Positions 6,301 through 9,300 of a stretch of DNA of 19,043 bases are shown one piece after another. The stretch comes from a virus (taxonomy: Duplodnaviria > Heunggongvirae > Uroviricota > Caudoviricetes). The stretch lies in the IMG/VR virus record IMGVR_UViG_2529292831_000013, one strand, 5' to 3'. Numbering within the stretch: the stretch's first letter is position 1; each line of letters begins with the position of its first letter. A program made the position numbers.

Positions 6301-9300
6301 ATATTTTTAACTAAAAATTTTTGGTTTTCAACCTGAAATCTTTATCTTTAAAAACAAAACATTACAATATTTTTAGTAAGATACCTTACCTAATGTAATG
6401 TGAATGGCTCAATTTTGATTAACACTTAAGCTATGTTAATAATGGTTTTGTAAGTGTGATGAGGGTTCCATATGAAGAAGTGATTTCCCGAACAATACAA
6501 CATGAATATCATCCTCGTAGTCGGTGTTTCTTCACATGAACTCTGTCGCAAATACGCTATATGAAACGTGGCAAGATGAATGTACCTGAGGTTATCAATC
6601 TTAAACCGCTTGAGAGTACGCCCTGATCCTGCCCGTTGATAAACTAACTGCATTGTTTGTAATGCTTCATCGGTGGTGAGAACAAGTTTCATACTTCCGC
6701 TTCTCGCTCAAAGCGGACTAGAAGGTTAGCTTGCGTCGGACTTGGCGTATTTAAAGAAGTACTGGTGGTGACTGGTTGTTGTGTTCCATTTCTACAGAAC
6801 AAAATCACAGAAACTATACCCAATAGTTGTATCTCATCAATGATGAGACAGCCTCATATTTATCAGGACTGGTGTACGTCCAATACAGGAGGTTGTCGTG
6901 CTGGTTCTCAAATGTGCGCTGGCTATTGCAGCTGTAATGGCAATTTATTGTCTTGCTGTTGTTCTTATGGATCGCCTTTCTGATTGATTTTATATTGGCG
7001 AGGTAACGGGAGTTAAGTAGAATGGCTGCGGGTGCTTGAGGCTATCTGTCTCAGGCATGAACACCAAAGGCAGATAGAGAAAAGCCCCAGTTAACATTAC
7101 GCGTCCTGCAAGACGCTTAACATTAATCTGAGGCTCAATCTATGAACGGCAAATCTAGGTTAGCCTCTTACGTGCCGAAAGGCAAGGAGAAGCAGGCTAT
7201 GAAGCAGCAAAAGGCGATGTTAATCGCCCTGATCGTCATCTGTTTAACCGTCATAGTGACGGCACTGGTAACGAGGAAAGACCTCTGCGAGGTACGAATC
7301 CGAACCGGCCAGACGGAGGTCGCTGTCTTCACAGCTTACGAACCTGAGGAGTAAGAGACCAGGCGGGGGAGAATCCCTCGCCACCTCTGATGTGTCAGGC
7401 ATCCTCAACGCACCCGCACTTAACCCGCTTCGGCGGGTTTTGTTTTTTCCTAGCATTCTGGTTTACAATTCGCACGCCAGCCTGAACAACTGGCACCTGC
7501 TGCGCCAGCAGAGACAACCGATGGCGCACGATACCAAATTACACAATTCTGATGATTCTGCCGTCTTTGCCAGCAGGCACGGGCGGCGTTCCCGCACTTT
7601 CAAATCTGACTGGTTCCAGCATCCCCCATGCACTGAAGAACAGGCCGAGTGGCTAATTCAGTGCTACCGCAGACACGGATACGAGATTAAGAAAGCCCTC
7701 AGCCTCGATTATCGTCACTGGATAATCTCCGTCAGGCTTCCTTACTCCGAGCGCCCACCGCGTCCGTCCCGCACATTCCAGCAACGCATCTGGAGGTAAC
7801 GTGCGGGTATTACTTCGACCTGTTCTGGTACCGGAACTCGGGCTGGTGATCGTTAAGCCGGGCCGTGAATCCATGCCGGTATTCCACAATACCCGGGTAC
7901 TGGTGGAGCCGGAACCGAAAAGCATGCGTAATCTGCCGTCCGGGGTCGTTCCTGCCGTTCGCCAGCCGCTAGTGGAAGACAAAACATTGCTGCCGTTTTT
8001 CAGTAACGCACGGGTGATTCGTGCTGCTGGTGGTGCTGGTGCATTGTCTGACTGGCTGTTGCGCCATATTAAATCCTGCCAGTGGCCTCATGGTGATTAC
8101 CATCACAGCGAAACCGTCATACATCGTTACGGTGCTGGCGCGATGGTGTTGTGCTGGCACTGTGACAACCAGTTGCGTGACCAGTCCTCCGAATCACTTG
8201 AGCAACTTGCTCACCAAAACCTGTCAGCATGGATGATTGATGTCATGCGCCATGCAATGAATGGCACACAGGAGCGGGAATTATCGCTGGCTGAATTATC
8301 CTGGTGGGCTGTCTGCAATCAGGTGGCGGACGCACTACCGGAGGTAGTATTACGTCGTTCTCTGGGGTTACGTGCGGAAAAAATTCGCTCGGTGTACCGC
8401 GAAAGCGACATCGTACCGGGAGAGCAGACCGCCACCAGCATACTGAAGCAGCGCACAAAAAATCTTGCGCCGCTGCCTCACGCCCACCAGCAAAATCCAC
8501 CACAGGAAAAGACGGTGGTCAGCATTGCTGTTGATCCGGAGTCTCCGGAATCTTTCATGAAGCGACCTAAACGTCGCCGTTGGGTAAATGAGAAATATAC
8601 GCGCTGGGTAAAGACACAGCCGTGTGCGTGTTGTGATAAGCCAGCCGACGATCCCCATCACCTGATTGGTCATGGTCAGGGCGGAATAGGGACAAAATCC
8701 CACGATATTTTCACGCTACCGCTGTGTCGGGAGCATCACAACGAGCTTCATGCGGATCCGCTGGCGTTCGAAGAAAAGCATGGTTCCCAGATTGATTTAA
8801 TTTTTCGTTTTCTTGATCGCGCCTTTGCAACCGGCGTGCTCGGGTAAAAGAGGTTACTGATGCGTATAGAGTTTGTTTTGCCTTACCCGCCGACGGTGAA
8901 CACCTACTGGCGTCGTCGTGGCAGCACATATTTTGTATCAAAAGCCGGTGAGCGTTATCGCCGGGATGTGGCACTTATTGTCCGCCAGCAGCGGCTGAAA
9001 TTAAACCTGTCCGGAAGGCTGGCAATAAAAATTACTGCAGAGCCGCCGGATAAGCGCCGTCGGGACCTGGACAATATCCTGAAAGCACCGCTGGATGCAC
9101 TGACGCATGCGGGGCTTCTCATAGACGACGAGCAGTTTGATGAAATCAATATTGTGCGCGGTAAGCTCGTTCCTGGTGGTCGGCTGGGCGTGAAGATTTG
9201 CGAAATTAGAGGTGATAGTAATGGGGCGTGATATGTATGAGGTTTTAGACCGCTGGGGGGCATGGGCTGCAGCAGAAAATAGTGGTGTCGATTGGCAACC

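Follow-up and report, generated by a model that had tools for sequence, protein, structure and literature searches.

Does a prophage remnant that carries a hok-type toxin gene carry a second small toxin gene immediately beside it? This question is raised by a 19,043-nt stretch of viral DNA (Caudoviricetes; IMG/VR record IMGVR_UViG_2529292831_000013), referred to below as the window, in which an open reading frame (ORF) of 29 codons encoding a very hydrophobic peptide precedes a hok gene. The first-pass annotation of the window had raised the possibility of two adjacent small-toxin loci. The computational analysis described here shows that the interval is made up of two separable modules, a hok/sok locus at 6995-7449 and a stand-alone small gene at 6832-6987. 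In the reading that we favour, with moderate confidence, the small gene encodes a prophage-borne, single-pass inner-membrane peptide, which has its own promoter, disabled in this copy, and which is accessory and not a second toxin.

The small gene and its product

The ORF starts with the GTG at 6898, is preceded by AGGAGG and stops at 6985..6987, so that the coordinates originally proposed for a single-helix peptide of 29 aa proved to be exact. The grand average of hydropathy (GRAVY) of the peptide is 1.81 overall and 2.7 in the core. AGGAGG followed 4-9 nt downstream by the start codon of an ORF no shorter than 20 aa occurs at only two sites in the 19-kb window, the other being a 92-aa ORF in the holin region (Shine-Dalgarno sequence, SD, at 14152), and a hydrophobic small ORF of this kind was obtained in none of 200 shuffles. 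The peptide had no match in searches of Pfam, NCBIfam, PHROGs, PADLOC and PDB, and no match to the peptide string was found in the literature searched. The ORF had been placed about 300 bp upstream of hok; this holds for the distance between the two start codons, but the end of the ORF is only 7 nt from the -35 element of the hok promoter, and the ORF therefore lies outside the hok transcript. The ORF segment was found in 1,986 of 5,426 complete Escherichia coli genomes, where it is almost never annotated.

A stronger argument for the ORF than chance occurrence was provided by comparative evidence. Three sets of loci (given L numbers) were used: 15 loci selected by DNA similarity, 80 viral loci ranked by protein identity, and 77 viral loci anchored on the hok promoter and the start of the hok leader, which constitute an unbiased sample. 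All 96 loci that were retrieved through their similarity to the ORF have it intact, as does the invasion plasmid pINV (see below); in one locus it has an in-frame deletion of 3 nt. All 15 DNA-selected copies keep the start codon, the SD and a peptide of 28-35 aa with conservative residue changes, and an SD of the AGGAG/GGAG type was kept in all alleles. The conserved core of these 15 loci consists of the SD and the ORF, the flanks being replaced on both sides: the left flank in L010-L014, and the right flank in L006, L009 and L012, in which the place of hok is taken by a DUF1971 gene on the minus strand. When 10 DNA-selected alleles were compared by the Nei-Gojobori method, the ratio of nonsynonymous to synonymous differences per site (pN/pS) was 0.35 for the frame of the ORF, as against 0.53-0.94 for the remaining five. 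Comparison with the distant loci L100 and L098 gave pS values of 0.59-0.63 and pN values of 0.16-0.22. At this deeper divergence pN/pS of the ORF was 0.28-0.35. In 13 of 15 comparisons with control frames, the control frame had the higher value. Judged by these substitution patterns, the peptide sequence is under purifying selection, and on comparative grounds the 29-codon ORF is a genuine gene for a single-helix peptide.

Conservation extends to a promoter-like sequence upstream of the ORF. TTGA(A/T)N-17-CATATT was found at a constant distance from the start codon in ~75 of the 96 loci, and it was kept in lineages with an unrelated spacer and unrelated surroundings (L010, L012, L014, L018, L021) as well as in L101 and on pINV. 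The phylogenetic footprint thus identifies TTGAA(T/G)-17-CATATT as the predicted sigma-70 promoter of the small gene, with transcription predicted to start at ~6867. The -35 element, which is TTGAAT or TTGAAG in most alleles, is TCTCAT in the window. The window allele differs from the L090 allele (TTGAATCAATGATGAGA) at three adjacent bases only (TGA>CTC, 6833-6835), and this change both destroys the -35 element and creates a perfect palindrome (Table 1), a pattern that would fit a quasi-palindrome template-switch mutation. With the -35 element destroyed, expression of the small gene in the window is probably low or dependent on read-through.

Two further features of this region were recorded. 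On the minus strand of the window (6813-6840) there is a leftward promoter-like sequence, TTGATG-16-TATAGT, whose -35 element is back-to-back with that of the small gene; the two overlap in TTGAATCAA, which is itself palindromic in other alleles. Transcription from this site, which is present in the main lineage only, would run through the conserved 6696-6806 block in the direction of the cargo genes. In L013 (1204-1563; prophage of the B strain, T7 Express / BL21 lineage) a deletion has joined a shortened DUF977 gene to the small-ORF region and has removed the small-gene promoter, and the 29-aa frame is intact despite this deletion.

The entries returned by protein searches were all from Escherichia or Shigella and bore the name "hypothetical" or "membrane protein", and a peptide pattern scan of one genome per species gave no confirmed match. 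The peptide family seems to be confined to mobile elements of Escherichia and Shigella. Divergent members, which were detected by a profile search of 1.84 billion proteins, share the motif A(I/V)YCLxVxLM(D/E)RL, and the distant ones show ~50-60% identity. All divergent members that could be placed are directly 5' of a hok locus, each of them behind different cargo. The profile of the 29-aa alleles matched P0061 (the same protein as the L098/Sakai type) with E=6.4e-4.

The Sakai-type protein, XECs145/ECs_5710 of prophage Sp6 of enterohaemorrhagic E. coli (EHEC) Sakai, is a predicted inner-membrane protein with one helix, and its core is ~56% identical to the 29-aa subtype. The two peptides have in common the helix-plus-tail core ALAxxAVxxxYCLxVxLMDRL and their position, XECs145 being located 190 nt upstream of mok/hok, which is followed by DUF968, RusA and Q. 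XECs145 differs in its length (34 aa), its acidic N-terminus (MSDDISLAME), its ATG start, a palindromic hairpin between the gene and the hok promoter, and in being catalogued as translated. In view of the significant similarity, and because both genes precede the hok promoter within the nin region of a lambdoid prophage, the 29-aa peptide can be assigned to the XECs145/ECs_5710 small-protein family. Translation of XECs145 was detected by ribosome profiling of uninduced cultures of EHEC Sakai (Hucker et al. 2017, PMC5597208). The following values were reported for RNA and footprints (both in reads per kilobase per million, RPKM), ribosome coverage value (RCV) and coverage, respectively: 79, 346, 4.35 and 0.99 in lysogeny broth (LB); 121, 150, 1.14 and 0.84 in the brain heart infusion (BHI) control; and 73, 1.1, 0.01 and 0.37 in BHI under stress (PMC5597208).

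A translated search revealed an intact, 79%-identical copy on 135 pINV plasmids of Shigella and enteroinvasive E. coli (EIEC), ~260-350 nt upstream of icsP. In this copy the promoter and AGGAGG are kept and the start codon is ATG; downstream of it the hok promoter and ~70 nt of a decayed hok leader are still present, whereas hok itself has been deleted. On plasmid pWR100 (L096 3930-4180; CP037924, complement of ~90,820-91,070) the region 170-420 nt upstream of the icsP start codon is derived from the small-gene/hok module; Prokka called the copy as CP037924_00134, and RefSeq has no annotation for it.

These observations can be combined into the following model. In most alleles the small gene would be transcribed from its own sigma-70 promoter into an mRNA whose 29 codons follow a leader of ~30 nt with a strong ribosome-binding site. 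The peptide would have its N-terminus inside and its acidic DRLSD tail outside, and it would be made constitutively in the lysogen, without Sok-type control. The prophage would carry it as a small accessory ("moron-like") membrane protein whose target in the membrane may be a component of the host or of the phage. In the window, production would be reduced by the loss of the -35 element as described above.

Several observations weigh against this model. The experiments cover the Sakai subtype only, and just ~56% core identity connects it with the 29-aa subtype. In the differential RNA sequencing (dRNA-seq) table of pWR100 no transcription start is found at the predicted promoter (~91,027, minus strand; PMC7132871). 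The -35 element has been lost in 20 of 96 loci, those with the window allele, and this loss could instead have come from selection against a harmful product. Approximately 11 of the 77 hok-anchored loci retain only the 3' end of the ORF, which shows that the ORF is dispensable. With closer relatives a control frame can fall below the ORF frame in pN/pS (0.27 vs 0.50 for pINV; 0.41 and 0.54 vs 0.56 for L101). Part of the conservation statistics is biased, as it was derived from loci picked by protein identity; for this reason the purely synonymous differences among the 80 viral loci ranked in this way were discounted as circular, and selection was re-tested on the DNA-selected and the hok-anchored samples. 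Finally, the constant position directly 5' of hok, which even distant members keep, suggests a link with Hok, while the model treats it as synteny only.

The hok/sok locus and the question of a second toxin

The first-pass annotation had described the hok frame as intact and followed by an intrinsic terminator, and both statements were borne out (Table 1). The 51-aa product matches Pfam PF01848 HOK_GEF (E=1.2e-23, 82.9 bits, cut-off 22) and PHROG 251 (E=2.8e-33). The predicted start of the hok transcript (~7030) falls on the first position of the Rfam model RF01794 (sok/hok leader), which matches 7030..7204 over its full length (model positions 1-157) with 110 bits against a threshold of 59. 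Besides this covariance model, the first-pass annotation had proposed to look for fold-back elements of the Hok mRNA and for a sok promoter on the minus strand, and all three were found. The hok mRNA folds with a minimum free energy (MFE) of -171 kcal/mol (z=-6.5), and nucleotides 7030-7041 are paired with 7403-7415 in the MFE as well as in the centroid structure. The minus strand carries TTGCCT-17-TAACCT. The SD (7130-7133) and the ATG (7142) of the mok-like frame are within the Sok target, in the same layout as in the annotated mokW/hokW of phage 933W, where the two frames have a common stop codon. A Sok-like antisense RNA had been anticipated at roughly 7020..7200; such an RNA is indeed predicted on the minus strand, but its span is narrower (~7150..7080). 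It folds (7151>7078) at -31.2 kcal/mol (z=-5.2), and its coordinates correspond to those of the annotated sokW misc_RNA of 933W.

Over 7025-7425 the DNA shares 93.5% identity with hokW-sokW of 933W/Sp5, a pair whose toxin and antitoxin activities have been demonstrated and which has a published role in phage release (PMC8621323). In that work Takada et al. silenced sokW by mutating its -10 element (PMC8621323), and the -10 of the window sok promoter is the element that was changed in their promoter-less construct (primers YO-421/422). Upon prophage induction SokW was lost and HokW was produced (PMC8621323). In the window, a stable, folded hok mRNA would be held untranslated by the fold-back pairing and by Sok antisense RNA covering the mok ribosome-binding site, and Hok would be the peptide that damages membranes. 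In silico, 6995-7449 is a complete type I toxin-antitoxin locus of the hokD/hokW type. This part of the interval is already known and already annotated (hokD), and our analysis adds nothing new to it.

Table 1. Features of the small-gene and hok/sok modules in the window
Feature	Position	Strand	Basis or remark
Conserved non-coding block left of the small gene	6696..6831	.	left edge 6693-6704, junction with hypervariable cargo
Small-gene promoter, -35 at 6832-6837, 17-nt spacer, -10 CATATT 6855-6860	6832..6860	+	phylogenetic footprint
Perfect palindrome TCTCATCA-A-TGATGAGA, allele-specific	6832..6848	.	comparison with the L090 allele
Shine-Dalgarno sequence AGGAGG, 5 nt before GTG	6887..6892	+	sequence
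29-codon gene, single-pass membrane peptide MLVLKCALAIAAVMAIYCLAVVLMDRLSD	6898..6987	+	conservation, pN/pS, translated homologue
hok promoter TTGGCG-17-TAGAAT	6995..7023	+	read from sequence
hok mRNA (leader, mok, hok, 3' fold-back region)	7030..7448	+	Rfam, folding
Sok-like antisense RNA (single-stranded 5' tail, long hairpin, U-tract)	7080..7150	-	folding, sokW of 933W
mok-like frame, 70 aa, in frame with hok	7142..7354	+	GAGG SD 7130-7133
sok promoter, -35 TTGCCT 7185..7180, 17-nt spacer, -10 TAACCT 7162..7157	7157..7185	-	sequence reading
hok (hokD) toxin gene, 51 aa	7199..7354	+	Pfam HOK_GEF; RefSeq hokD, WP_000813254.1
Fold-back (fbi) partner CCTCAACGCACCC of the mRNA 5' end GGGTGCTTGAGG	7403..7415	+	folding
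Intrinsic terminator of hok mRNA	7422..7449	+	hairpin 7422..7439, 7-bp stem with 5 G-C pairs, then TTGTTTTTTC (T-run)

The reading of the 29-aa ORF as a second small-toxin locus was not supported, as the ORF was found to have neither a conserved antisense promoter nor an Rfam match, a structured mRNA or similarity to Hok. No conserved antisense promoter was found in silico, both minus-strand candidates failing on conservation. One of these, TTAACT-18-TAAAAT (7016..6987), is broken by a T>C change at 6991 in ~43% of the alleles and is absent from the hok-less loci; the other, the leftward site 6840..6813, is missing in L012, L014, L018 and L021. An Rfam search of 6600-7040 returned no family even at E<=5, and none was found in the hok-less loci either. 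The predicted mRNA of the small gene (6867-7029) folds with z=-0.04, as against -6.5 for the hok mRNA. A stem that might sequester the SD (6869-6879 / 6911-6921) is not maintained in divergent alleles. Descent from a duplicated hok was likewise rejected: the peptide had no Pfam match at E<=1, there is no DNA similarity to the hok locus, and the score of the local alignment between the peptide and Hok was reached by 29% of shuffled sequences. The Pas small RNAs (sRNAs) of prophages of pathogenic E. coli were also considered, and these map near the lysis genes, not at the small ORF.

What remains is the possibility, which we regard as unlikely, that the peptide damages the membrane as the toxin of a type I-like system of its own, curbed by an RNA, perhaps an unconventional one, that escaped our searches or by weak expression. 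Like the type I toxins, the peptide is small and hydrophobic, and in its general build, one short and strongly hydrophobic helix with a charged tail, it resembles toxins of the TisB, Fst or Ldr type. The loss of the promoter in 20 of 96 loci and truncation of the ORF in ~11 of 77 would also agree with a toxin, as similar inactivation has been reported for chromosomal hok loci, and the leftward site 6840..6813, directed away from the gene, recalls the layout of tisB/istR-1. Against this, the ORF is not accompanied by a conserved antisense or divergent RNA, its mRNA is unstructured with an accessible SD, and it has been maintained on pINV and in the DUF1971 loci between different flanks. Moreover, the homologue was translated at an RCV of 4.35 in healthy, growing EHEC lysogens (PMC5597208).

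The slot upstream of hok

Among the 77 hok-anchored loci, the sequence directly upstream of the hok promoter contained an intact member of this family (29-aa or 34-aa subtype) in ~40, only the 3' end of the ORF in ~11, an unrelated 27-aa membrane-peptide ORF (MTWPEAF...ICRWG) in ~16 and neither in ~10. The position immediately before the hok promoter is thus repeatedly occupied by a small membrane-peptide gene, which comes from either of two unrelated families. The 27-aa ORF (MTWPEAF...VYSICRW[GR]) is unannotated; it was located in L222 (1381-1464; 933W), in L224 (2844-2927; Sakai Sp6), where it is in tandem with the 34-aa subtype, in L098 (~2770-2853) and, by a primer match, in Sp5, and two of the ~16 copies have an early stop codon. 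Like the 29-aa gene, it encodes a small single-helix peptide behind a strong SD and ends just before the hok promoter (7-9 nt before the -35). It differs in belonging to an unrelated sequence family and in having a start codon that overlaps the stop codon of the upstream gene (ATGA), so that the 27-aa ORF is probably translationally coupled and not transcribed from a promoter of its own. Since the insert of the published plasmid pBAD18-hokW-sokW starts at this ORF (primer YO-432), the construct also co-expresses the 27-aa ORF.

The recurrence raises the question of whether the peptides work together with Hok. A functional link of this kind seems rather improbable to us. In one form, to which we would give only a slim chance, the peptide is a modulator, a protein-level antidote or a co-effector of Hok at the membrane during induction, and the locus is a three-gene unit. 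In a more general form, of which we are equally doubtful, prophage hok loci are three-part units with a reserved peptide slot, in which the peptide cooperates with Hok or tempers it, or in which its induced transcription hits the convergent sok promoter and releases Hok; if true, transcription into the convergent sok promoter would account for the loss of SokW on prophage induction. Such a partnership would be in keeping with the occupancy of the slot in ~40 and ~16 of the 77 loci by the two families, with the position of the distant members (~50-60% identity), which are immediately 5' of hok behind different cargo in each case, and with the lack of a terminator between the ORF and hok. However, the ORF persists without hok, both beside DUF1971 (L006, L009, L012) and on pINV, and conversely a small ORF is missing altogether from ~10 of the 77 hok loci and reduced to a remnant in 11. 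The hokW gene was found in 110 phage records, the 29-aa ORF in only 4. The hok DNA is 93-99% identical across loci in which pS of the small gene is ~0.6; hok being nearly identical and the small genes strongly diverged, the two appear to be modules with separate histories that have not co-evolved. In addition, Hok toxicity and its rescue by Sok were obtained with hokW alone (pBAD24-hokW, PMC8621323).

It is also conceivable that the peptide itself is immaterial and that the effect comes from transcription and translation that cross 6867-7030, enter the hok promoter and oppose the convergent sok promoter. The ORF stop codon is 7 nt from the hok -35 with no terminator between them, and, as SokW is lost and HokW produced on induction (PMC8621323), read-through from upstream might be expected to collide with sok transcription. 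We consider this explanation highly unlikely, because the peptide is under purifying selection, with a C-terminal motif conserved in distant members, and because the ORF has been kept where there is no hok to regulate. The least probable explanation, in our estimate very improbable, is that the frame is incidental to a conserved DNA element, for example one that anchors recombination at the edge of the cargo, or an upstream region of the hok promoter: the segment does lie at a mosaic junction between variable cargo and hok, RefSeq almost never annotates the ORF and no transcription start was called on pWR100, but the excess of synonymous changes is specific to the ORF frame, one locus has an in-frame deletion, the start codon and SD are kept (the start being improved to ATG on pINV), divergent homologues are recognisable at the protein level only, and ribosome footprints cover the Sakai homologue.

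Prophage setting and comparison with known systems

The gene order was read from the RefSeq annotation of the chromosome of an enterotoxigenic E. coli (ETEC) that is 100% identical to the window. From left to right it comprises IS100, a BCCT transporter, DUF2254 and three minus-strand genes (two hypothetical and one of the ParA family); then hokD, a rem-like hypothetical gene, DUF968, RusA and antiterminator Q; and in the right part a DNA methyltransferase, two tRNAs, holins and an endolysin. The integrase, immunity and replication genes that precede the hok region in intact relatives are absent from the window. As replication genes and DUF977 are immediately to the left of the hok region in those relatives and are missing here, the hok region forms the left edge of a truncated lambdoid prophage, in agreement with the earlier description of the locus as the edge of a prophage remnant.

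The homology of the conserved block left of the small gene ends at 6693-6704 in ~78 of 95 loci. The block itself tolerates indels, and 56% of its columns vary. Exactly at its sharp left boundary there is a hairpin, CCGCTT-N8-AAGCGG (6698-6717), which lacks the T-run that would make it an evident terminator and may mark the junction with the cargo. The slot beyond it (4154-6692, minus strand) contains a gene for a ParA-family ATPase (5355-6185; Pfam AAA_31, E=1e-37), two genes without a family (4154-4849 and 4852-5358) and an unannotated 88-aa ORF (6426-6692). In other loci the same slot is occupied by SIR2, PLD, RES+Lit, DUF4209, QueH or HigBA, and PADLOC gave only a weak match with the window cargo (PDC-M28B). 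The slot looks like a hypervariable cargo or defence hotspot. In L100 (2135-2333), matches to isrK and to the C4 antisense RNA / a1b1 target (P1/P7-type immunity RNAs) were found ~700 nt upstream of the small ORF and hok.

In the right part of the window two adjacent tRNA genes (12880-13030; tRNA-Thr and tRNA-Gly in RefSeq) are located downstream of the methyltransferase and upstream of the lysis genes, a position common for phage tRNAs in lambdoid phages. Between Q and the methyltransferase, on the opposite strand, lies a gene for a protein of 427 aa (9781-11064, minus), which had no Pfam or PADLOC family match and is likely to be another moron.

The significance of the small gene is modest. 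It is a protein-coding gene that is present in about a third of the complete E. coli genomes and on the invasion plasmid, and that standard annotation almost always misses. The pINV copy lies inside the icsP regulatory region, which had been dissected without reference to it. The promoter-killing palindrome allele and the intact allele make up a natural on/off pair for studying function, and the gene's fixed place beside hok, which a second and unrelated family also takes up, offers an opening onto the question of how prophage Hok is released on induction.

Comparison with known systems can be made separately for the two modules. The hok/sok locus resembles hokW-mokW-sokW of the Shiga toxin (Stx) phages 933W/Sp5 (Takada et al. 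2021, PMC8621323) in its DNA (93.5%), its in-frame mok, its sok -10 element and the coordinates of Sok. The two differ in location: the window locus is in the nin region (cargo, hok, rem-like, DUF968, RusA, Q), whereas that of 933W is among ead/Ea22-type genes near the end of the record. The Hok protein of the window is identical to HokD (RelF) of the Qin prophage of K-12; the window locus is complete, whereas K-12 hokD presumably lacks the upstream regulatory part because relBE precedes it. As to the small gene, tisB/istR-1, zorO/orzO and shoB/ohsC are type I toxin genes with a divergent sRNA antitoxin. The 29-aa ORF is similar to them in encoding a hydrophobic peptide of ~30 aa or fewer and in having a divergent promoter-like site upstream, and it differs in that no conserved partner RNA, long structured leader or sign of translational silencing was found. 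AcrZ, MgtS, PmrR and KdpF are small inner-membrane regulator proteins of E. coli. Although it has no sequence similarity to these proteins, the 29-aa peptide is like them in its size, in its single helix and in being encoded by an ordinary gene with a promoter and an SD.

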